33,563 nucleotides of DNA, taken from the IMG/VR virus record IMGVR_UViG_2541047945_000006. The stretch is one strand, 5' to 3'. A program made the translations under genes and the position numbers. The notes beneath the pieces were generated by a model. It did no database searches. It saw only the letters and a program-made list of their open reading frames with translations, and was not told the origin of the DNA. Source of the stretch: a virus. Lineage: Duplodnaviria > Heunggongvirae > Uroviricota > Caudoviricetes. Below are positions 1,915 to 18,823 of this stretch, one piece after another (positions within the stretch are counted from its first letter, which is position 1; every line of letters begins with the position of its first letter).

Positions 1915-2819
1915 CAATTAACCTCCTGCGGCGGTTCCGGTAGCGGCATCCAGTGAGTTGCTTGCTCAATACCATTACCCGACTTAATCGTTGCATCTCC
2001 GCGCCGAAAAGTGCTTCCGGTATAGCGTGCGGAGCATATTAGCGGTTCAACCAGAGAGCTATCGAAATTCACCGAAATGAGCACGTTCTGATTCTTCTCA
2101 GGCATTCGCTCACTACAGCTTATCCAACTATCCGGAGTTACCGGATAGTTGCCCGATAGTGCATTCTGCTCCAGTGATGCTTTTACAAACCACGCTGCCT
2201 GAACTATAACGCCATGAATCCAGCGCAAATCAGCATCGCGATCTTTCTTTTTCATCTTTTCGCCACTTAAGGCCTTGCTTATGTGGCTGCGTACCAGGTC
2301 TTCATGTAATTCCTTCGTCTCCTCAATGGTGAAACCACCAGGCAGAAGAGCCGGAGTTACCGGAGAGCTGGTTGACGCTTCCGGGATTTCCCGAAAATTA
2401 TTGGTTGACGAATTCTTGCTTTCCCGAAAGTTTCCGGACTGAAGCATGGCGGTGCGGCAGGCGTTCCATATTTCGGCAGCAATATCGCGCTCGCTATCGG
2501 TTAATTTGTACGTGGAAACATAGCCAGAGAGCATTTCTACGTTTTCCGGAGTTGCTTCTTCCGGCACTACCGGCGCTGGCGGGGCGATGCGTCCAAGCAA
2601 CTTATTTACCTCTTTCGCCATCGCGTCATATTTATCTAAATGGCGATTAGCTTCTAAGCAGACTCGGCGCATCTGATCTGAGTTAACTCGTTTAACTGGA
2701 TCTGCTTCCAGCGATGCCAGCGCAATCCGTGCCAGTTCCATTTGTTCACCACGGGTAAGCCCGTTTTCAAGCGGATTTTTAATGAACAATTCAATACGTT
2801 CTTTGGTAATAGTGGTCAT
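1914..2819 (-). CDS. Phage protein with C-terminal DUF551-like region
   Basis: 301-aa ORF, AAGGAG SD 7 nt upstream; C-terminal W...SERMPE...HWMPLPEPP pattern recalls DUF551 proteins common in the accessory region of lambdoid prophages. Confidence 0.7.
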   Translation of the reverse strand: MTTITKERIELFIKNPLENGLTRGEQMELARIALASLEADPVKRVNSDQMRRVCLEANRHLDKYDAMAKEVNKLLGRIAPPAPVVPEEATPENVEMLSGYVSTYKLTDSERDIAAEIWNACRTAMLQSGNFRESKNSSTNNFREIPEASTSSPVTPALLPGGFTIEETKELHEDLVRSHISKALSGEKMKKKDRDADLRWIHGVIVQAAWFVKASLEQNALSGNYPVTPDSWISCSERMPEKNQNVLISVNFDSSLVEPLICSARYTGSTFRRGDATIKSGNGIEQATHWMPLPEPPQEVN

Positions 2820-2829
2820 GTGTTACTCC

Positions 2830-3093
2830 TTAACCCGCAGTGCTTTCAACTGATGAGGGGAACAAAATCTTTTCATCAAACCCTGCATTCATATCATGAA
2901 CAGCAACACACCAATCCATCGACGAACGATTATCAAGAGCCTCCATGATTTCATCCATGCGGCGTAGGTCATACAGGTAAATGCTTTTATCGCCAATGGT
3001 GTAAAAGCCAATTTTTTTCGGTGATGGACAGCGATCAAGAACGTCCTGTAATTCGCTCAACCATGCTTGTTCTTTTTTTGTCAAAGTTGCCAT
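2830..3093 (-). CDS. Hypothetical protein (87 aa)
   Basis: ATG at 3091-3093 with AAGGAG SD; tightly packed in the leftward operon. Confidence 0.55.
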   Translation of the reverse strand: MATLTKKEQAWLSELQDVLDRCPSPKKIGFYTIGDKSIYLYDLRRMDEIMEALDNRSSMDWCVAVHDMNAGFDEKILFPSSVESTAG

Positions 3094-3094
3094 A

Positions 3095-3619
3095 TCACTC
3101 TCCTTTGATGCGAATGCCAGTGGTACTCATTCTCCTGATTTCCCAGAGCACACGAGGAACACCACCGTTTCCGACCGGATCGCGTTTACTCCGCAGGGCG
3201 ACGCTTGATTCCGCCCAGCTTTTTCTTGGAGGAAGCTCTTTCACACGAACAAAACCAGCTGCGCGGAGAGATGCTCCTGATTCATCTGCCTGGGTGTACG
3301 TAATGCAACGTTGATAACCCATAGCCTTTGCTGCCCGCCAGACTTTACGTAAAAAATCGCAGATATAGCCCTTCATTTTTTCGTGCCAATCTCGATCATT
3401 CCCATTGCACCAACCATCAGGTGGAGTCCAGTTTTCTATCAGAGCAGCCATTTTCTTTGCTTTCGCCGGAGTAGCTGTTGCGGTATCGCAGTAATGACGA
3501 GTGTCAACCAACGTATCCATACCATCGATATCAAGTACGCAAAACCATGTGTGATTCGGCATTTCAACAGATGGTATTTGTTGCCCACGTCGACGTTTAT
3601 CAATAAGACATACACTCAC
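3095..3619 (-). CDS. Hypothetical phage protein; possibly Mom-like GNAT-fold DNA-modification protein
   Basis: 174-aa ORF with GTG start preceded by AAGGAGG; motif CITYTQADESGASLRAAGF resembles what I recall of Mom-family acyltransferase-like proteins. Family assignment is tentative. Confidence 0.6.
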   Translation of the reverse strand: MSVCLIDKRRRGQQIPSVEMPNHTWFCVLDIDGMDTLVDTRHYCDTATATPAKAKKMAALIENWTPPDGWCNGNDRDWHEKMKGYICDFLRKVWRAAKAMGYQRCITYTQADESGASLRAAGFVRVKELPPRKSWAESSVALRSKRDPVGNGGVPRVLWEIRRMSTTGIRIKGE

Positions 3620-3636
3620 TGCTTGCCTCCTTTACG

Positions 3637-3783
3637 CTACATCGCATTCAGATATTTGTTTTGATTCACTGATGGAAAAGAATTTCTCTTAAGCAACTCC
3701 TCTCTCGATGGCATTGGCTTTACGCGTTGGCTAATAATCATTTCTGCCGGAAGAATGCCGGGATTGTATGCAAGTCCTCTCAT
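3637..3783 (-). CDS. Hypothetical small protein (48 aa)
   Basis: Internal ATG of track ORF 3637-3933, preceded by GAGGA; lies 10 nt after the stop of the upstream ORF. Confidence 0.3.
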
Positions 3784-4494: not shown

Positions 4495-5099
4495 TAAGCA
4501 GCCGCTCCTTCTAATTCGTCTCGTCTGATGTTGTAAACGTCCTGCGCTTTGTGCTGCTCCGGTGTGCCTTCGAGCATCTTCCACGCTTTGGCGAACGCCT
4601 GTTTAAGCTCTTCTACGGTGTTTTTCTGCATTGCTGCGTCAGTGAATGCCTTTAAAACCTGTTCAGGTGTAGGTGATGGCTTTGATTGCTTTGCTGCTGC
4701 GTTCTGCTGATGTTTATGCTCGTCTGTATCTGCATCTTTCGCATCATCTATGCCGAACAAACCATTGAGGCAATACTTGCGTGCATAAGAGCTTGTAGCT
4801 CCAGTAACTTGTGCAGAATCCATTCCTTTCTTGCTTTCTTCCTCTCGTGCAAGGGCGGTTGCCGTATGACTGTTTTCGCCATCGGTAATAGTTGCCGTGG
4901 CTTTCACGTAATACCGATCACCAATCAACACAACTTCATCGCTGATTGATAAAAACAGGCCATTCAGTAGCGGCTTAACGCCTTCAAGAATGTCTTCGCA
5001 GCTTCTGTATTTATATTTACCGAATGAGTTGTACTGATTCTTTGGCGCGTTCAGATTCTCCTGAATAGCTGCCAGTCTTGCGTAAAATTCTTTGCTCAT
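4494..5099 (-). CDS. erf: Single-strand annealing recombinase, Erf family
   Basis: Closely resembles P22 Erf as I recall it (MSKEFYARLA.IQE.LNAPKNQYNSFGKYKYRSCEDILEGVKPLL...). The track ORF starts at a TTG (5129); the first ATG is at 5097-5099. Confidence 0.8.
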   Translation of the reverse strand: MSKEFYARLAAIQENLNAPKNQYNSFGKYKYRSCEDILEGVKPLLNGLFLSISDEVVLIGDRYYVKATATITDGENSHTATALAREEESKKGMDSAQVTGATSSYARKYCLNGLFGIDDAKDADTDEHKHQQNAAAKQSKPSPTPEQVLKAFTDAAMQKNTVEELKQAFAKAWKMLEGTPEQHKAQDVYNIRRDELEGAAA

Positions 5100-5109
5100 A
5101 TGATTGTTC

Positions 5110-5280
5110 TCAGAATGGACATGGCCCAAGTAAATAACGCTGATTTAATACTTCAGTCTTTGCCGCATTTAAAAATACGCGAACACCTTCACGATCTCCC
5201 TTCTGGCGATACATTAACGCCTGCTGCGTGTACATGCGTCTCTGTAACTTGCTCTCCTTCACTGTGGTTGCAAGTGACAT
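5110..5280 (-). CDS. Hypothetical small protein (56 aa), kil/arf position
   Basis: ATG at 5278-5280 preceded by a strong AAGGAG SD; overlaps the alternative ORF 5189-5359 in another frame. Confidence 0.4.
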   Translation of the reverse strand: MSLATTVKESKLQRRMYTQQALMYRQKGDREGVRVFLNAAKTEVLNQRYLLGPCPF

Positions 5281-5359
5281 GAATATCTCCTTCATTACCG
5301 ATTAATTCTTTCATCTGACGAATGAATTCTTCGTCTGACCAGTTATCTGCAAAACTCAT
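5189..5359 (-). CDS. Hypothetical small protein (56 aa) translationally coupled to cIII
   Basis: ATG at 5357-5359 overlaps the cIII stop (ATGA); overlaps ORF 5110-5280 in a different frame, so one of the two may be spurious. Confidence 0.4.
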   Translation of the reverse strand: MSFADNWSDEEFIRQMKELIGNEGDIHVTCNHSEGEQVTETHVHAAGVNVSPEGRS

Positions 5360-5526
5360 GGACGGCCTTGTTGTTTCAAAATATCCCAAAGCTTTTCGAG
5401 CAAGCTTTTCATTCTTGGTTGTTTAAAGTCTGCTCCGGTTAAAATATTTTTTCGTGAATGCTGCACCGATAAAATCGGGTTGAAAGGGCGAACCGATGCC
5501 GCCCCTGCAATAGCGAACTGTTGCAT
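5356..5526 (-). CDS. cIII: CIII-like regulator (FtsH inhibitor that stabilises CII)
   Basis: 56-aa ORF (MQQFAIAGAASVRP...SLLEKLWDILKQQGRP) resembling lambda CIII (MQYAIAG...LIDILNQPG); AAGGAG SD 8 nt upstream. Confidence 0.7.
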   Translation of the reverse strand: MQQFAIAGAASVRPFNPILSVQHSRKNILTGADFKQPRMKSLLEKLWDILKQQGRP

Positions 5527-5590
5527 AGGATGCTCCTTCTGTTTGATTGCATAACGAAAACGCCTCAAGTGAAGCGTTATTGGTATGAAT

Positions 5591-5616
5591 ATAAAAAAGC
5601 CCTCACATCGGAGGGC
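5591..5616 (-). terminator. Putative intrinsic terminator in the pL operon (GCCCTC-CGATGT-GAGGGC plus UUUUUU)
   Basis: Hairpin 5599-5616 followed on the minus strand by a U-run; located 65 nt upstream of cIII. Confidence 0.5.
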
Positions 5617-5732
5617 AAAGAAGATTTCCAATAATCAGAACAAGTCGGCTCCTGTTTAGTTACGAGCGACATTGCTCCGTGTATTCACTCGTTGGAATGA
5701 ATACACAGTGCAGTGTTTATTCTGTTGTTTAT

Positions 5733-5761
5733 GCTAAAAATAAAGGCCGACTATGCGGCCT
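5733..5761 (-). terminator. Putative intrinsic terminator overlapping the stop of the 207-aa gene
   Basis: AGGCCG-CATAGT-CGGCCT hairpin followed by UUUAUUUUU on the minus strand. Confidence 0.45.
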
Positions 5762-6374
5762 CGGAAGGAAGTCCAATCATCTTATTCAAATCTTCTACCC
5801 GTAAAGCAGGAAGTGCTGTACTTGCTTTATCTGCTTCTTTTGGTAGCAATTCTTTGCTTTCAGGCCAAACTTCAATAAGTCGCTTAACTGTTGTGACTGA
5901 GTTCAAAGCAGCCCATACATTTGATTCGATATCCTTTTTCTTGGCTTCAAGTTTTTGTTGCAATGCGCAGATTTCATCAAACCTTTTTGTTATTTCGTGC
6001 TCTGCGTCAAACATGCATTTATCTTTGGTCGGAGTAGGGAGCAATATATCTTCGCCGTTGCCGTCTTTCCCATATGAATGCCATCCAACCCTTCTGCCAG
6101 ATACAGTCAGATAAATTGAAGTAGAACGAACATCGTATGAGTAAAATGAACATCCCAGTTTTTCAAGTTCTTCACTTATAGCTACTAACTTGGAATATAA
6201 ATGATCCACTTCCTCAGTTTTCTTTTTACCGCCAAACGCAATAACTCTGGCGTCAAGTGCAAGCTGGTTCTTTAACTTTGTTACTTCTTCAAGTTCAGTG
6301 AAAACCCCAGACTTAATTAAAGCGTTACGAGCGATTTCCTCTTTCATTCTCGTAGTTAAGCGGATTGATGACAT
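5751..6374 (-). CDS. Hypothetical protein (207 aa) in the pL operon between N/sieB and cIII
   Basis: ATG at 6372-6374 with GAGAGGAA SD; charged, coiled-coil-like N-terminus; no family recognised. Confidence 0.65.
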   Translation of the reverse strand: MSSIRLTTRMKEEIARNALIKSGVFTELEEVTKLKNQLALDARVIAFGGKKKTEEVDHLYSKLVAISEELEKLGCSFYSYDVRSTSIYLTVSGRRVGWHSYGKDGNGEDILLPTPTKDKCMFDAEHEITKRFDEICALQQKLEAKKKDIESNVWAALNSVTTVKRLIEVWPESKELLPKEADKASTALPALRVEDLNKMIGLPSEAA

Positions 6375-6385
6375 ATTAATTCCTC

Positions 6386-6589
6386 TCAAATAAGTGGTTT
6401 GCTGCCTAATTTCATTTTCTGGCGACCAACACAAGTCACCCCCATTTCACTGCGTGGCTTGCGGTAGTAAAGATTGTGCCTGTCTTTTAACCACATCAGG
6501 CTCGGTGGTTCTCGTGTACCCCTACAGCGAGAAATCGGATAAACTCTATTCACCCCTACAGAGAGCAAAAGAGAAACGCCGATGAACAA
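6386..6589 (-). other. ORF whose C-terminus resembles the lambda N C-terminus (possible N gene remnant)
   Basis: 67-aa track ORF ending ...YYRKPRSEMGVTCVGRQKMKLGSKPLI, which resembles the lambda N end (...WYSKPGERGITCSGRQKIKGKSIPLI) as I recall it; it lacks an arginine-rich motif. Confidence 0.4.
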
Positions 6590-7163
6590 CTCATGGTGGC
6601 AGGAACTAATGCATTTTTTCCTGCAAGGAATGACACTTAAACAGTTGATTCATATGCTAATCATCCTGATCATATTGATTATTGTTATGCCGGTAAGCGT
6701 AAAAGAATGGATAAACCTGCATAATCCAGAAATCCTTCCTCATTACTGGATGTATTACATCCTGTTGTTTTGCGTTAGCTATGTGCTTAACGGCGTTGTT
6801 AATTCCGCTTATCACGCTGTGACTGAAAGAATTGAGGTATTCGCTGCTCAGAAGCGCAAATCTAAAGAAGAGAAATACGTGCAAGATTTGTTTGATTCGT
6901 TAACTCTTGGAGAAAGAGCGTATTTGGCACTCGCTGTAGTCGCTAATAACCAGCTACAAACGGAAAAGGGAAGCCCTGAAGCAATCTCATTGCTCGAAAA
7001 AGGGCTTCTTATTCGGATACCTTCTGCTACTGGATATCCTGAAATCGACCGTTTTGTTATCCCAGAACGCTATAGAAATGAGTGCTACATTAGGTTTGCT
7101 GGGAAGAAAGACAGTCTTATGGATGAACTTATCGCTCAGGATAAGCACGGCAAAAACAAGTAA
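6582..7163 (+). CDS. sieB: Superinfection exclusion protein B
   Basis: 193-aa protein closely matching lambda/P22 SieB from memory (MNNSWWQELM.FFLQGMTLKQLIHMLIILI...); hydrophobic N-terminal region; convergent with N. Confidence 0.82.
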   Translation: MNNSWWQELMHFFLQGMTLKQLIHMLIILIILIIVMPVSVKEWINLHNPEILPHYWMYYILLFCVSYVLNGVVNSAYHAVTERIEVFAAQKRKSKEEKYVQDLFDSLTLGERAYLALAVVANNQLQTEKGSPEAISLLEKGLLIRIPSATGYPEIDRFVIPERYRNECYIRFAGKKDSLMDELIAQDKHGKNK

Positions 7164-7179
7164 TTAGCAAATTAATTTA

Positions 7180-7452
7180 TCATCTTGCTGTCAGTTGTTT
7201 TGATTTCCGATAGCCTGCCGCGTAAAGAGCTACATTTGGAAGACAAGTTGAGCCTTCATATTTTCTGGTCAACGTTGTCAGTGTTATTACTTCTGCTCTC
7301 ATTGCTGGTTTGCGCTTGCATTGCAAGACCACTCGTGAAGGGGTTGGCCTGTGTAGCTTGTCGGAGCTGATCGCCTCCTGACTTTGCAGATTTGCACGAC
7401 GAGCTCTACGGCGAGAAGCTGCGGTGCCTTTAAATTCTGTTTTTCTGGACAT
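7180..7452 (-). CDS. N: N-type transcription antiterminator with arginine-rich motif
   Basis: 90-aa ORF from ATG 7450-7452 (GGGAGGAA SD); N-terminal arginine-rich motif KGTAASRRRARRANLQ resembles phi21/P22 N; sits immediately downstream of a boxA/boxB nutL site. Confidence 0.7.
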   Translation of the reverse strand: MSRKTEFKGTAASRRRARRANLQSQEAISSDKLHRPTPSRVVLQCKRKPAMRAEVITLTTLTRKYEGSTCLPNVALYAAGYRKSKQLTAR

Positions 7453-7550
7453 AGATTCCTCCCGAATAAACTTTGGCGATGCAATCTCGAAGCCCCTCCT
7501 GAGACGGTTGCTTCGGCATTGCATCCCACAGCTTATGTGGTTGGGTGATC

Positions 7551-7596
7551 TGGCTTTTCAGCCACGTAGTCGAGTGTTCGACGTTGTTTAAAGAGC
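7551..7596 (-). promoter_or_regulatory. nutL: nutL-like site (boxA GCTCTTTAAACAA and boxB hairpin TGGC-TGAAAA-GCCA)
   Basis: Read on the minus strand between the pL candidate and N; boxA resembles the CGCTCTT(T)A consensus and boxB matches the nutR boxB loop at 10119-10132. Confidence 0.55.
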
Positions 7597-7642
7597 CTGC
7601 CAGTCTGTTCCGTTTGGCTTACAGCGTCCTGCTGATGAGTTA

Positions 7643-7690
7643 ACTTTATCGAAATGATAAATTAATGGCAATAGCAAAATGATAAATTGT
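7643..7690 (-). promoter_or_regulatory. OL operators and candidate pL (-35 TTGCCA, 17-bp spacer, -10 TAAAGT on minus)
   Basis: 17-bp palindrome TTTATCGAAATGATAAA at 7645-7661 and direct repeats AAATGATAAATT at 7652-7663 and 7677-7688; same GATAAA half-sites and -10 TAAAGT as in the OR region. Confidence 0.5.
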
Positions 7691-7865
7691 TTTAGTTTTC
7701 AAATATCCTGTTGATTATTATGGTTTTTTATTTGATTGCAGGAATTTATCAGAAGGAATAAAGAGACTTGAGGGGGATCAGAATTGCGCGTTTTAGTGAG
7801 TTGTATCTGTTTATTTTTCAACAAATACAATTGGTTATGGTGTTATTAGGTGTGGGGATCGTGAG

Positions 7866-7893
7866 GCAAAGAAAACCCGGCACTGAGGCCGGG
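7866..7893 (-). terminator. Intrinsic terminator after the cI-proximal cargo gene (CCCGGC-CTCAGT-GCCGGG plus UUUUCUUU)
   Basis: Perfect 6-bp GC stem followed by a U-run on the minus strand, 12 nt after the stop of ORF 7905-8951. Confidence 0.6.
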
Positions 7894-7904
7894 TTTGGAG
7901 TGCA

Positions 7905-8951
7905 TCACTCTGGTTCGCTGGGGAATATATTTATCAATTGTCCTGTTGAAATGTGTCCATTTTCTACAACCTCTAGGTATGAAATTTCAACAGTTGATTC
8001 TTTGGCTACAGCATTCAAAAACTCAAGAAGCTCATCAGTAGATGTTATGTCGGCTGAGGTTTTTATGGTGAAAGATTCACCATTTGAAACCCTTGTGACG
8101 TCAATATTTATGTCCTGATTTGTTTCTCCCGAGCGACGAACGCCCGTGACATAAAAGTTATCTCTTCTAGTTTCCTTTTTTCGATCAATTGATTGCCTTT
8201 GGTTTAAGGTATTCAACTGTTCTCTATTTACCACTCTCTGACCAATTGTTACCTTCTCAACTGACGAGTCTTGAGCAAGCTTTTTAAGCAACTTGCTTTT
8301 ACCATCCTCGCCGTGAGCCAGAACCTCTCTGCTAATGTTTGTTTGACCGCTAATCAACAACTTGAGCACATTGTCTTGTGCTTCGTTTACCGCTTTGGTG
8401 CTTTTTTCCACCAATTGCACCTGAGAATCTTGGTCATGTCGCTGTGTTTCGTAGTACTCATTGATCCACTTATAGCCTACCGTGCTGGCAGCTAAGACGA
8501 TAGCGGCGACGGCGCATAGTGCTTGCCTTCCTGTCATTTTGCCTATCGCTTGAGTTAACACTGTCACCACTCCGTTTACAATCGGATCTGAGTCACCATC
8601 CGCTTGGCTTGAGCCTTCGCTTATTCGGTAGACAATATCCAGCAAACCTTTCTCTGCATCTTTTAGCTTCTGCCGATTATGAGTGCTGTGACTGACTACC
8701 GTAAATGCTTTTTGTATTTCATGCGTAAGCTCTGCCATACCAAAAAGCATTGACGCAGTCAATGAAGAATTATATCTATTTGGATCGCCTTTTACATTAA
8801 TATTGATCTTTGGCCATCCACTGAAAACTACGCTAGGGAATGTGAAGTCGCTTGAGTCGATATCCTTCCTTCCGAGCATTTCTGTTACAAAAGATACAAA
8901 GTCGTCTTCTGACTTGATAACATATTGCGCAGGTTGATCAATCGCTGACAT
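7905..8951 (-). CDS. Uncharacterised 348-aa protein with one predicted transmembrane helix (rex-slot cargo)
   Basis: ATG at 8949-8951 with AAGGA SD, 76 nt downstream of the cI stop on the same strand; hydrophobic segment LCAVAAIVLAASTVGY mid-protein; no Walker A or other motif I recognise; unlike RexA/RexB. Confidence 0.8.
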   Translation of the reverse strand: MSAIDQPAQYVIKSEDDFVSFVTEMLGRKDIDSSDFTFPSVVFSGWPKININVKGDPNRYNSSLTASMLFGMAELTHEIQKAFTVVSHSTHNRQKLKDAEKGLLDIVYRISEGSSQADGDSDPIVNGVVTVLTQAIGKMTGRQALCAVAAIVLAASTVGYKWINEYYETQRHDQDSQVQLVEKSTKAVNEAQDNVLKLLISGQTNISREVLAHGEDGKSKLLKKLAQDSSVEKVTIGQRVVNREQLNTLNQRQSIDRKKETRRDNFYVTGVRRSGETNQDINIDVTRVSNGESFTIKTSADITSTDELLEFLNAVAKESTVEISYLEVVENGHISTGQLINIFPSEPE

Positions 8952-9027
8952 TCTTAATCCTTAACATCCATTCCTATCACCCAAACGTCTCTTCAGGCCA
9001 CTGGTTACCAGCTATGTGACGATGAAG

Positions 9028-9732
9028 TCACGAATTTTTCAGCCACTCCCTTGCCTCGATGTCATCCAGATGACGAGATTGCTTCAGAATACCAGCCACA
9101 TACTCCACCTTTGCTACTTGATGATAAGGCAACGTTATTGGCCTATGGTCCTGGTTGATGCTTGTAAACTGGTATTCTCCGTCTCTGTCATAGCCAAGAA
9201 CTTTGATCATGTTGTGTCCTTCAACGGTTCTGACAAACACCTCATCACCCGGGAATACTTTGGTGTTAGGCTCAATGAGTACATATTCTCCTGATTTTAT
9301 TCTAGGCCACATGCTGTCTCCTTTCACACGAAGACCAAAGGCATCTGGATCATCGCTATAAATCTTGAGCCACCCATCGCGCTCTTCGGTCATCTCGATG
9401 GCACCATCAACACCAAGAATTGCCTCACCAACCACGCGCACTAACCCTTTTCTTACCTGACCGACAAAAGTTAAAGAATCTGAGCATGATGCAATTGGTG
9501 TTACATCATGTACCAAATCAAGCCACCCATTAGGTAACCCAAGTGCGGCTTCGAATTTTCTTGCTAGTTTATCCCCTATGTTTCGAGTGCTTTTTTCACC
9601 GGAGACTTGCGTGAGTTGAGAAGGGCTAACTCCAAGCTTATCGGCAAAGCTTGCATTAGTGTTACCCGCGATTTTTTTATGCTCATCTAGCAAAAACGCC
9701 AGATTCGATTTGCGAATATCTTTGTTTTCCAT
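9028..9732 (-). CDS. cI: CI-type prophage repressor (HTH plus LexA-like S24 autopeptidase domain)
   Basis: 234-aa ORF; N-terminal HTH region and C-terminal S24 domain with the GDSMWP motif and a lysine further downstream; divergent from cro across an operator region. Confidence 0.9.
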   Translation of the reverse strand: MENKDIRKSNLAFLLDEHKKIAGNTNASFADKLGVSPSQLTQVSGEKSTRNIGDKLARKFEAALGLPNGWLDLVHDVTPIASCSDSLTFVGQVRKGLVRVVGEAILGVDGAIEMTEERDGWLKIYSDDPDAFGLRVKGDSMWPRIKSGEYVLIEPNTKVFPGDEVFVRTVEGHNMIKVLGYDRDGEYQFTSINQDHRPITLPYHQVAKVEYVAGILKQSRHLDDIEAREWLKNS

Positions 9733-9759
9733 CCCACGATTCTCCCTCTATTTAGCAAA

Positions 9760-9820
9760 TGGATAAATACGCATTTTGATAAATCTCCATTGCAGTTTAT
9801 TTATCAAAATGGTAAAGTTG
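9760..9820. promoter_or_regulatory. OR operator region with candidate pR (-35 TTGCAG 9790-9795, -10 TAAAGT 9813-9818)
   Basis: Inverted 12-mers ATTTTGATAAAT (9773-9784) and ATTTATCAAAAT (9799-9810), plus further GATAAAT copies; pRM for cI is presumably here on the minus strand. Confidence 0.55.
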
Positions 9821-9845
9821 CTCTGTGTGATAAACGGAGGCACTA

Positions 9846-10079
9846 ATGAGTAATGAACTACTACGCTGGCGAAAAGAGGCTTCTAGTGAGGAATGGAAGC
9901 GACTCGCCGCATTAGCGAATACTTCAGTTGGCTATCTTGATCAGATTGCATATGGGTTTCGAAGAGCTTCCCCAGATAAAGCGAATGCAATCGAAGAAGC
10001 CACTCGTAATTTCACGGGTTATAAACCTGTGAAAAAGGAAAATCTGGTGTTCGTATCGCGTAGAGCATCAGCAGCATAA
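9846..10079 (+). CDS. cro: Cro-like repressor
   Basis: 77-aa ORF divergent from cI, GGAGG SD; small HTH-type protein in the canonical position. Confidence 0.8.
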   Translation: MSNELLRWRKEASSEEWKRLAALANTSVGYLDQIAYGFRRASPDKANAIEEATRNFTGYKPVKKENLVFVSRRASAA

Positions 10080-10086
10080 GTAACCC

Positions 10087-10132
10087 CGCTCTTTGTAACA
10101 ACGGACATTCGTCCTACGTCGCTGAAAAGCGA
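10087..10132 (+). promoter_or_regulatory. nutR: nutR-like site (boxA CGCTCTTTGTAACAA, boxB TCGC-TGAAAA-GCGA)
   Basis: boxA-like sequence followed about 17 nt later by a boxB-like hairpin, just downstream of cro. Confidence 0.55.
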
Positions 10133-10217
10133 ATCCCAGAATATCTGACCAACTAAGGCCATATGCGTTTCCACGCATACCTTTCAACTAACTATTCACT
10201 ATTGGAAATATTAAGAA

Positions 10218-10514
10218 ATGACACAAGCAAGTTACAGCAAGCCAACACAGCGAGAAATTGATCGCGCTGAAACTGATTTACTCATCAACCTGTCAACGCT
10301 TACCAAGCGCGGTCTGGCAAAGATGATTGGCTGTCATGAATCGAAGATAAGCAGAACGGACTGGAGATTTATTGCTTCGGTCTTGTGTGCTTTCGGAATG
10401 GCATCAGACATCAGTCCGATTAGCAGGGCTTTTAAGTATGCGCTTGATGAAATCACAAAGAAAAAATCCCCGGTGGCCGCCGGGGACTCTAAGCAAATTG
10501 ATATGCAATTCTGA
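10218..10514 (+). CDS. cII: CII-like transcriptional activator
   Basis: 98-aa ORF resembling lambda CII in outline (HTH region ...SKISR..., C-terminal ...QIDMQF versus lambda ...QIQMEF). Confidence 0.78.
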   Translation: MTQASYSKPTQREIDRAETDLLINLSTLTKRGLAKMIGCHESKISRTDWRFIASVLCAFGMASDISPISRAFKYALDEITKKKSPVAAGDSKQIDMQF

Positions 10515-10546
10515 GGGAATTACTGGATCAATCCACAGGAGTCATT

Positions 10547-10708
10547 ATGACAAAACGTCGTAAGAAATACCAGGAAAAAGAAGAGATTCGACACCCTGAT
10601 TCACCTGAGGGATTAGTGGTAGCCGCAGCAAATAACAGGGCGTTCGCAGAGCGCCTTGTTGGTGTTTACAGACTAGCCAAAGCAGGAGTGAAACATGGGC
10701 GTCGTTAA
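10547..10708 (+). CDS. Hypothetical small basic protein (53 aa)
   Basis: Manual ORF (MTKRRKKYQEKEEIRHPDSPEG...) with AGGAG SD 7 nt upstream; its end overlaps the start of the O-like gene. Confidence 0.35.
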   Translation: MTKRRKKYQEKEEIRHPDSPEGLVVAAANNRAFAERLVGVYRLAKAGVKHGRR

Positions 10709-11516
10709 GTTAGCTGATTACAGGCCTCAACTGGAGGTCGTGGAGCATCGCGTGGCAGATACCGAAGATGGTTTCATGCGCGTTGCTAACGAGATTACCG
10801 ACAATCTGCTGATGGCTGATTTAACCGTCCGGCAGTTGAAGGTGATGCTCGCTATCATGCGCAAGACATACGGATTCAATAAGCCGATGGATCGACTCAC
10901 AAACACGCAGATAGCAGCCATGACAGGTATTCATCACACTCATGTTTGCGCTGCCAAGCGCCAGCTTATCGAGCGTAAATTCCTCATTGCTGATGGCGTG
11001 AAAATCGGAGTGAACAAGGTGGTTTCTCAGTGGATTAGCCAGGACAGCTTAACATTAGCTAAAACAGCTAATAAAACATTAGCCGAGTCGGCTAATGGGT
11101 ATAAGCCAAGTCAGCTAAACACAAAAGACAATATACAAAAGACAATAAATACAAATACCCCCTTACCCCCTAACGGGGGAGGCGATGGGCAGGTTAAACC
11201 TGAACGTCGCAAGGCAGAACGAATCGACTACGAATCCTTCCTGAACGCCTACAACACCGAAGTCGGTGACAGACTTCCACATGCTGTTGCGGTCAACGAG
11301 AAACGCAAACGCCGCCTGAAGAAAATCATCCCGCAACTGAAAACGCCAAACGTGGACGGTTTCAGAGCGTATGTCAGGGCGTTTGTGCATCAGGCCAAGC
11401 CGTTTTACTTCGGAGACAACGACACGGGATGGACGGCAGATTTTGATTACCTGCTGAGGGAAGATTCGTTAACGGGAGTACGGGAAGGGAAGTTTGCAGA
11501 CAGGGGGATTGCATGA
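10695..11516 (+). CDS. Replication initiator, lambda O-like N-terminal domain (P22 gene 18-like)
   Basis: N-terminus aligns with lambda O from memory (ADL..RQ.KV.LAI.RKTYG.NKPMDR.T..Q); contains iteron-like repeats and an AT-rich tract internally; AGGAG SD. Confidence 0.85.
11044..11156. repeat. Putative replication origin: palindromic 17-bp iterons plus AT-rich tract inside the O-like gene
   Basis: TTAGCTAAAACAGCTAA (11055-11071) and TTAGCCGAGTCGGCTAA (11079-11095), further AGCTAA copies, then an A/T-rich tract with ACAAAAGACAATA repeated (about 11117-11155). Confidence 0.5.
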
Positions 11517-17609: not shown

Positions 17610-18500
17610 TCAGGCTGCCAGATCATCGTTTCCGATGGAAGCATAATAAGCTTTTTCTGCTTCTGCCGGAGGAGTATGGCCCAGCCTTTCCAGCAATCGT
17701 CGATTGTTATACCAGTCCACCCACGTGAGTGTGGCCAGTTCCACTTCTGCACGGTTTTTCCAGCTCTTACGGTGTATTACCTCCGCTTTGTAAAGACCAT
17801 TGATGCTCTCCGCCATCGCGTTGTCATACGAGTCGCCTGTACTTCCTGTTGATGCCAGTAATCCGGCTTCCTTAAGCCGCTGTGTGTAGGCCAGCGATAC
17901 ATACTGAGAACCTTTATCACTGTGATGGACCGTGCCGGACGGTCGACGGGCCCATAACGCCTGCTCCAGTGCATCCAGCACGAATGTCGTCTCCATGGAC
18001 GATGAGACCCGCCACCCCACAATGTATCCGGCAAACACATCAATGATGAACGCCACATAGACGAAGCCCTGCCATGTGCTGACGTAAGTAAAATCAGCCA
18101 CCCACAGCTGGTCAGGTCGTTCTGCCACGAACTGACGGTTTACGCGGTCGCCTGCGGCAACGGCTTTCCGGCTGATGGTCGTACGGACCTTTTTACCCCG
18201 GAGAACACCGGCAAGTCCCATAACCGCCATGAGACGTGCCACAGTGCATCTGGCCACTCTGATACCTTCCCGTAACAACTGACGCCAGACTTTACGCACA
18301 CCGTATACCTTGTGATTTTCATCGTATACGCGCTGTATCTCTTTCTTCAGCCAGTCATCGCGCTGCGCACGGGCACTGCGTTTATCCGGATGATGTCGCT
18401 GTTGCTGACAGTGGTAATACGTTGACGGGGCAATATGCAGTTCGCTGCATAGCGGTCCGACCCCGTACTGCTCACGCAGCTTATCCAGCAGTGGCATCAT
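17610..18500 (-). CDS. IS3-family transposase OrfB (DDE integrase-like catalytic domain)
   Basis: 296-aa ORF of typical IS3-family OrfB character; overlaps orfA as expected for -1 frameshift fusion. Confidence 0.85.
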
Positions 18501-18823
18501 TTTTTCCAGAGGCGGTCGAACTCCGCCTTCGCAAAATAAGCGGAAGCCTGGCGAAGGATATCGTTACTGCGGCGCAGTTCACGATTTTCACGCTCCAGCT
18601 CTTTCAGACGCTGACGTTCAGCGGTGGTGAGCCCTCCATCACCGCCCCCGGTATCCCGCTCATGCTGGCGAACCCAGACACGCAGAGTCTCCGGCGTACA
18701 GCCAATCTTTGGAGCAATGGAACAAATTGTCGCCCATTGTGAGTCATATTCGCCCTGACTTTCCAGAACCATACGGACTGCCCGTTGACGGACTTCAGGG
18801 GAAAAACGAGTATTTTTAGTCAT
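18497..18823 (-). CDS. IS3-family transposase OrfA (HTH plus leucine zipper)
   Basis: 108-aa ORF ([57 protein letters not shown]...) that I recall as IS629/IS1203-type OrfA. Confidence 0.85.

Follow-up and report, generated by a model that had tools for sequence, protein, structure and literature searches.

What kind of gene occupies the interval between the cI repressor gene and the leftward promoter of a lambdoid prophage when it is neither rexA nor rexB? The question is raised by an open reading frame (ORF) encoding 348 amino acids (aa) in a stretch of caudoviral DNA of 33,563 nucleotides (nt; IMG/VR record IMGVR_UViG_2541047945_000006), which we call the window. Taken whole, it is a lambdoid prophage of mosaic structure, whose late genes are P22-like (CUS-3/Kapi1-like). 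Read from the window sequence, the ORF runs from ATG to TGA at 7905..8951(-). A first-pass annotation, made by a model from the letters alone, had singled it out as the best candidate for an undescribed superinfection-exclusion or abortive-infection determinant. Here we report that the ORF is a real gene of a large family and a horizontally exchanged single-gene cassette, and that its product may be an anti-phage protein of the lysogen that acts at the envelope.

The ratio of nonsynonymous to synonymous substitution rates (dN/dS), measured against an 87%-identical copy, was 0.04-0.05 in each domain of the protein, and homologues were found in the hundreds. Thus, the 348-aa ORF is a real gene under strong purifying selection and not a chance ORF. 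An exhaustive profile search collected 916 representative clusters at E<=1e-3 (541 at E<=1e-10), nearly all of them 320-360 aa in length, and a word-indexed search gave about 58 relatives, all labelled hypothetical. Named members of the family come from Enterobacterales, Pasteurella, Vibrio, Pseudoalteromonas, and Chromobacterium. The sole family assignment was phrog_6191, whose function is unknown and whose 338-position profile gave a full-length match (E=5.8e-36) that pairs residues 7-342 with positions 5-331. None of the Pfam, NCBIfam, and PADLOC models matched the protein; in PADLOC-DB v2.0.0, it hit no family at E<=1 and six relatives hit none at E<=0.01, and a Pfam scan of 124 family members revealed no family in common. 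Weak matches to an FtsH ternary system X3-analog (E=0.11), Phage_Gp84 (E=0.18), and phrog_12989 (E=0.007) were taken as noise, as was an NCBIfam primosomal N' match (16.9 bits against a cut-off of 813). Among close copies, WP_001272876.1 of E. coli differs from the window protein by four substitutions, and Orf11 of prophage phi458 is 98.9% identical to it. One 89%-identical copy (L035, IMG/VR contig 2713897197_000016, 3060-4105) has lost its frame in the C-terminal third, giving six stops on straight translation, and is a pseudogene or a sequencing error. Six NCBI entries of 279-281 aa for close relatives (P0005, P0006, P0044, P0045, P0047, and P0049) start at an internal Met equivalent to residue 68-72; because they lack the conserved FxGWP...YxSSxT part of the N-terminal domain, their start codons are probably mis-called.

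The gene occupies the slot equivalent to that of rexAB, between cI and the terminator in front of the operator OL and the promoter pL, as the first-pass annotation had proposed. The features that define the slot are as follows.

7905..8951, (-) strand: coding sequence of the 348-aa protein (phrog_6191), under purifying selection
9028..9732, (-) strand: cI repressor with helix-turn-helix (HTH) and S24 peptidase domains (Peptidase_S24, E=3.8e-16; PHROG 'transcriptional repressor'), the 5' gene of the presumed transcript
8952..9027, (-) strand: 76-nt spacer between cI and the gene, from a sequence scan
8958..8962, (-) strand: Shine-Dalgarno sequence AAGGA, 6 nt 5' of the ATG, inside the swapped segment
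7897..8970, (-) strand: exchangeable cargo segment, comprising the ORF and its own ribosome-binding site, from flank alignment and cargo diversity
7867..7896, (-) strand: intrinsic terminator (AAACCCGGC-ctcagt-GCCGGGTTT-TCTTTG), a hairpin with a T-tract that forms the conserved left junction of the slot

This layout bears out the earlier description of a gene lying 76 nt 3' of cI, with its own AAGGA and a terminator before OL/pL. The stop codon of cI and the start of the gene, both on the (-) strand, are separated by the 76 nt of 8952..9027, and a scan of this spacer found no promoter-like site and, on the coding strand, no terminator. Because of this, the gene would be expected to be transcribed together with cI from pRM/pRE in the lysogen, like rexAB in lambda. 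On the (-) strand, the G+C-rich terminator hairpin, located directly 3' of the stop codon of the gene, reads CCCGGC (7893-7888), a CTCAGT loop, and GCCGGG (7881-7876), followed by TTTTCTTTG to 7867, and its stem can be extended by AAA/TTT to 7896. A strict terminator scan did not list the hairpin because the T-run is interrupted.

We aligned the flanks with those of two prophages, L005 and L006, which have the same cI and the same N/pL side and carry other cargo. The flank homology ends at 7893/7896 and returns at 8971/8976, and 7897..8970 is the only stretch that differs. Since 8958..8962 falls within this swapped segment, the Shine-Dalgarno sequence travels with the cargo. The terminator is common to prophages with different cargo, mEp332 included, and, judging from the alignments, it belongs to the conserved flank of all cargos; the gene is indeed followed by a hairpin, as had been noted, but the hairpin is not part of this gene's cassette. 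In other E. coli genomes (H73-H77, H62/H63/H71, H72/H78/H85, and H82/H84), the same flanks enclose a Clp-fold protease of the SDH/S49 type, a HigB toxin paired with an HTH protein, or a DUF3024 or CCDC90-family protein, and one of these alternative-cargo copies also carries an IS3 transposase; in E. coli, the cargo can also be two or three small hypothetical proteins. In L005 (E. coli strain 2824, 2471-3777), the cargo is a 180-aa hypothetical protein and a 258-aa DUF1828 protein, which match the PADLOC candidate PDC-M24 (A, E=3.8e-4; B, E=5.4e-7), and this candidate system thus also rides in the cI-to-pL slot. The slot of HK544 holds two other hypothetical proteins and that of CUS-3 is empty. 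Conversely, the gene and the terminator (7868-9004, 99% nucleotide identity) stand 3' of a different cI of 215 aa in phi458 and in 18 of 5426 complete E. coli genomes, where the protein is annotated as hypothetical protein WP_001272876.1. The combination of cI and gene seen in the window was absent from those complete genomes and present, with an identical protein, in IMG/VR contigs. Among viral contigs, family members lie 3' of at least five distinct cI alleles. The survey of related prophages that the first-pass annotation had suggested therefore identifies the slot as a demonstrable cargo-exchange site, and the gene is a self-contained single-gene accessory cassette, or moron, that is horizontally exchanged.

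More distant relatives occupy a range of other sites. Divergent homologues with 20-25% identity and equal length and architecture are located directly 3' of cI in PhiR12_1-5, mEp332, and a Yersinia prophage. Members in Serratia and in viral contigs L045-L048 lie at prophage ends, convergent with int, and those of Enterobacter, Xenorhabdus, and Yersinia adjoin DinI and tail-fiber genes at the other prophage end. In a Mu-like prophage of Chromobacterium sp. S0633, a member (L059, 5001-6044) separates the baseplate genes Mu gp45 and gp46, shares their strand, and is a moron inside the tail-gene module. Members on non-phage islands adjoin AbiEi/AbiEii in Pseudoalteromonas and an integrase with an NB-ARC/TPR STAND-like protein in Vibrio, and a further one, on an element that also encodes a DUF927 primase, comes directly after an MmeI-type restriction-modification gene. 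Searches with two distant members, P0081 and P0070, gave no match in viral contigs. No partner gene, sieB included, was kept across these contexts, and the gene therefore appears to work alone. The earlier proposal that it forms a two-gene defense island with the nearby sieB is not sustained: the cassette follows no fewer than five cI alleles, is also found at prophage ends, and has unrelated neighbors, and any link to sieB is one of position only.

The protein itself could be divided into four parts, which are encoded, from the N-terminus to the C-terminus, as listed below.

8523..8951, (-) strand: N-terminal alpha/beta domain, aa 1-143, conserved, without known fold, predicted to be cytoplasmic
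8466..8522, (-) strand: single hydrophobic segment, aa 144-162 (ALCAVAAIVLAASTVGY, aa 144-160, then KW), predicted from hydrophobicity to be a transmembrane (TM) anchor, N-in/C-out
8184..8465, (-) strand: helical, coiled-coil-like stalk and small beta hairpin, aa 163-256, predicted to be periplasmic from a low-confidence model
7923..8183, (-) strand: C-terminal oligonucleotide/oligosaccharide-binding (OB) fold, b1-b2-b3-alpha-b4-b5, aa 257-343, acidic (pI 4.7), from a structure model

The N-terminal domain carries the motifs FxGWP (43-47), G55, Y60-x-SS-x-T65, L96, G113-S114, and M139. Between distant relatives, its pairwise identity is 30%, against 17-20% for the C-terminal half, and the hidden Markov model extends to the C-terminus in only 73 of 136 of them. 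The one hydrophobic helix noted in the first pass was found as the single segment at aa 144-160. It has a Kyte-Doolittle mean of 1.72 over 19 residues and a Hessa dG of +0.7 over 17 residues, compared with +5 to +9.6 for soluble proteins of the window and -2.9 for SieB. Its position is conserved among the 136 distant relatives (median residue 132), and it is strong in some relatives, for example mEp332 (dG -3.0). Because the sequence contains no N-terminal signal sequence and the flanks of the segment are asymmetrically charged (net +2 on the N side and -2 on the C side), the close family most likely has an N-in/C-out topology. PDB sequence-profile matches to MotB, PBP5, PgdA, and Tom20 covered only the TM anchor and the linker; we read them as compositional evidence in favor of a TM segment and conclude no homology from them.

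What had been described as a polar C-terminal region consists of helices and a confidently modelled OB domain; the domain shows the five-stranded barrel order and structural similarity to solved OB folds, and the full-length model has a predicted local distance difference test score (pLDDT) of 65. The first-pass statement that no Walker A motif is seen is right in substance. A literal Walker-A-like string, AHGEDGKS (aa 212-219), is present but not conserved: of 23 close relatives, 10 keep K218 and 3 keep S/T219, and the wider family has neither. The region is modelled as helical, and no P-loop NTPase family was matched. An Rx4H string (aa 208-213) is unconserved and no HEPN family matched. Likewise, no nuclease domain or motif was detected in the protein. 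GenBank entries label the PhiR12 and mEp332 homologues as 'T2SS GspM containing protein', after a component of the type II secretion system (T2SS). The T2SSM model (PF04612) gave no match in those proteins and scored 13.7 bits against a cut-off of 27.8 bits in the window protein (E=0.075). GspM has the bitopic inner-membrane layout that is predicted here, in which a helical stalk leads to a periplasmic C-terminal domain, but its periplasmic fold is ferredoxin-like, whereas the C-terminal domain modelled here is an OB barrel. On score and fold, we reject the label.

How, then, might such a protein serve a lysogen? The reading that we prefer, and to which we give about even confidence on the sequence evidence, is that of a stand-alone anti-phage protein that is expressed in the lysogen and acts at the envelope. 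The product would be a bitopic inner-membrane protein with the conserved 140-aa N-terminal domain in the cytoplasm and one TM helix, followed by a helical stalk that would place the acidic OB domain in the periplasm. Stalk and OB domain, the parts that evolve fast, would recognize something exposed at infection, either a phage ejection or tape-measure protein or an inner-membrane channel used by the phage, and this recognition would block genome entry directly or pass a signal to the conserved cytoplasmic domain. Within the envelope reading, a direct block appears somewhat more likely than outside-in signalling. The fullest form of the latter, in which one polypeptide is an envelope sensor whose periplasmic stalk and OB domain detect the injection apparatus and signal through the single TM helix to a cytoplasmic domain that, with a fold not seen before, supplies a new effector or signalling activity, seems to us improbable.

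Several known systems provide points of comparison for the envelope reading. Lambda rexA/rexB resemble the gene in their equivalent slot between cI and the terminator (tImm in lambda), their orientation on the cI strand, their presumed co-transcription, and a membrane component, predicted in the present case. They differ in that a single gene with one predicted TM segment and a large predicted periplasmic OB domain is found here; RexB is polytopic. The first-pass annotation saw no resemblance to RexA/RexB or SieB, and we agree: no RexA/RexB family was among the Pfam matches of the protein at E<=1, and PF14163 (SieB) did not match it and did match the neighbor at 6582-7163(+). P22 SieA, HK97 gp15, T4 Imm, and lactococcal Sie2009 are, like the product predicted here, phage- or prophage-encoded, single-gene, membrane-anchored proteins with a proposed action at the envelope or at genome entry (SieA: PMC10883804), but the 348-aa protein would add a conserved 140-aa domain on the other side of the membrane, which simple blockers are not known to need. 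No library match of the protein was annotated as of the SieA/gp15/Imm/Sie2009 type, a separation made by annotation and not by sequence comparison. SNIPE, a membrane-bound nuclease that cuts phage DNA during injection, follows a logic similar to the one proposed here, being a constitutively membrane-localized defense protein that makes use of genome-entry geometry and contacts tape-measure proteins or ManYZ (PMC13190303); unlike SNIPE, the 348-aa protein has no detectable nuclease domain. The kind of system, a lysogen-expressed exclusion gene in the rex slot, is well known, and the family is large and uncharacterized, with an N-terminal domain without known fold.

An anti-phage role has also been predicted from another side. 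In Table S10 of DefensePredictor (DeWeirdt, Mahoney & Laub, Science 2026, PMC13092281), WP_001272876.1 falls in the category 'Predicted novel defense gene', its mean log-odds being 6.86 (range 5.17-8.95), and the HHblits and Foldseek columns for known defense homologues are empty. It is outside the 94 units tested in that study and belongs to the 1,041 E. coli clusters that are 'predicted novel defense' and untested (PMC13092281). By our own count from Table S6 of the same paper, 27 tested units lie within 2 log-odds of 6.86, and 14 of these protected against at least one phage. The determinant is consequently not undescribed in the strict sense: it stands as a hypothetical protein in phi458 and 18 complete E. 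coli genomes, as phrog_6191, and in this table. Our literature search on the accession numbers and on mEp332, PhiR12, and phi458 found no functional study, and in that respect the word holds. As an anti-phage candidate, the gene is reasonable, given the machine-learning listing, a cargo slot shared with toxin-antitoxin, protease, and PADLOC-candidate genes, and AbiE, STAND, and MmeI neighbors elsewhere. The DefensePredictor study also validated DS-34, which consists of an E. coli prophage cI and WP_000377448.1, an AbiZ-like/DUF6161 TM protein; the two were scored protective when cloned together, and the raw plating rows include Bas3 and Bas19 (PMC13092281). There too, a hypothetical membrane protein is encoded directly 3' of a prophage cI in the same slot, and DS-34 is a direct precedent for the kind of system proposed here. 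The two membrane proteins are nevertheless not homologous (BLASTP E=2.2; hhalign probability 0.1%): that of DS-34 begins with a coiled coil, ends in a multi-TM region, and lacks an OB fold.

Several points weigh against this reading. About half of the predictions at this score gave no protection in the panel of PMC13092281. DefensePredictor uses genomic context and is thus not fully independent of the neighborhood evidence, and the defense-type neighborhoods amount to a handful of loci. As for the architecture, the hydrophobic segment of this member is Ala/Gly-rich and marginal (dG +0.7). Across the family, the positive-inside rule gives an ambiguous answer, with the more positive flank on the N side in 68 members and on the C side in 52. 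Outside the OB domain the full-length model is poor (pLDDT 65), the OB fold is generic and compatible with many functions, and neither domain displays recognizable effector chemistry.

The alternative that survives best, although we consider it unlikely, is that the protein is an abortive-infection effector. Once infection was sensed, the TM helix, alone or oligomerized, would collapse membrane integrity and the lysogen would die before phage release, an outcome like that of RexB or AbiZ brought about by one unrelated protein. Many single-gene abortive-infection effectors are membrane proteins, and what we see here is a single gene with a predicted TM segment; a conserved N-terminal domain and TM module would also fit a conserved effector joined to a variable sensor, and toxin-antitoxin and Abi genes occur nearby, in the slot and in the islands. 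The slot itself is common to rexAB and to DS-34 with its AbiZ-like TM protein. Abortive infection is disfavored by the single, marginally hydrophobic helix without amphipathic or multi-TM pore features and by a large structured periplasmic part that a simple depolarizing toxin would not need.

Alternatively, the gene may encode a lysogenic-conversion protein of the envelope without a role in defense, like lambda bor and lom, and act in stress tolerance, adhesion or biofilm formation, serum resistance, or envelope homeostasis. Virulence and fitness morons of prophages are likewise found at tail fibers, att sites, and cI, the positions taken by this family, and the OB fold, predicted to be periplasmic, is similar to OB proteins that bind metals or sugars (SilF, AB5 B subunits, and YgiW). 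In addition, prophage phi458, which carries the gene, is reported to affect biofilm and virulence in avian pathogenic E. coli, an effect that is assigned to no gene (PMC9701743). The slot-mates and island neighbors are, however, conflict genes and not virulence genes, the machine-learning prediction favors defense, and the rarity of the gene, carried by 18 of 5426 complete E. coli genomes, speaks against a broad role in fitness. We regard lysogenic conversion as distinctly unlikely.

A role in the prophage's own life cycle, namely in induction, the lysis-lysogeny switch, or lysis timing, has likewise been proposed for RexAB, and RexA/RexB are reported to act in the lysogenic-to-lytic transition (Thomason et al. 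2021, as cited in PMC12315714). The presumed co-transcription with cI would be in line with such a role, but family members are found far from any repressor, at prophage ends, among Mu tail genes, and on non-phage islands, and the same cI works with many other cargos or with none (CUS-3); we consider this explanation very improbable. Least probable of all is a soluble cytoplasmic nucleic-acid binder in which the hydrophobic helix is buried or forms an oligomerization core and the OB domain binds single-stranded DNA or RNA of the invader.

Beyond the cargo segment, the remaining features of the region and of the late genes are as follows.

7643..7688, (-) strand: OL-like direct repeats (7647-7663 and 7672-7688) overlapping a pL-like promoter (7671-7643), at the far edge of the immunity-region slot
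7180-7524, (-) strand: N (PF25694, E=2.4e-32)
6582-7163, (+) strand: sieB (PF14163, E=3.8e-24)
5751-6434, (-) strand: gene for nucleotide-modification-associated domain 5 (Nmad5; PF18757, E=2.1e-71), past sieB in the pL operon
18497-18823, (-) strand: IS3 orfA (HTH_Tnp_1)
17610-18500, (-) strand: IS3 orfB (rve integrase core)

An 11-nt sequence inside the 3' end of the gene, ATTTATCAATT at 7929-7939, is 91% complementary to both OL-like repeats (7652-7662 and 7677-7687). The match may mark a stray operator half-site but is probably due to chance. The approximately 180 nt between the shared terminator and OL (7690-7866) contain only a 43-aa ORF with a TTG start (7699-7830(-)), and in related prophages a frameshifted hypothetical pseudogene is annotated just before N. 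A small RNA, svsR, has been reported at the 3' end of a cI gene (PMC12803456); an Rfam scan of 5000-11000, which includes 7690-7866, gave no match, and no search was aimed at svsR. The Nmad5 gene is found at the equivalent position in the other-cargo prophages L005 and L006, and DefensePredictor points to an untested 'nucleotide modification associated domain' among its predicted defense domains (PMC13092281). In the late region, an IS3-family insertion sequence (17610-18823(-)) separates the NinG/phosphatase genes from the terminase/portal genes, and the prophage may be defective, or a gene disrupted, at this insertion.

The cI-to-terminator interval of lambdoid prophages is a cargo-exchange site with precise junctions, at which each cargo brings its own ribosome-binding site and uses a shared terminator, and for this reason it is a practical place to mine for lysogen-expressed conflict genes. 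If the 348-aa protein is protective, a large family without a recognizable enzymatic domain, with hundreds of clusters in Gamma- and Betaproteobacteria, would be added to the known defenses. A periplasmic recognition module, if the envelope reading is true, would be a rare arrangement and would inform how cells detect or block phage genome entry. Should the sensor form of that reading prove true, the approximately 900 clusters would represent a widespread and unrecognized class of transmembrane anti-phage receptors in Proteobacteria.

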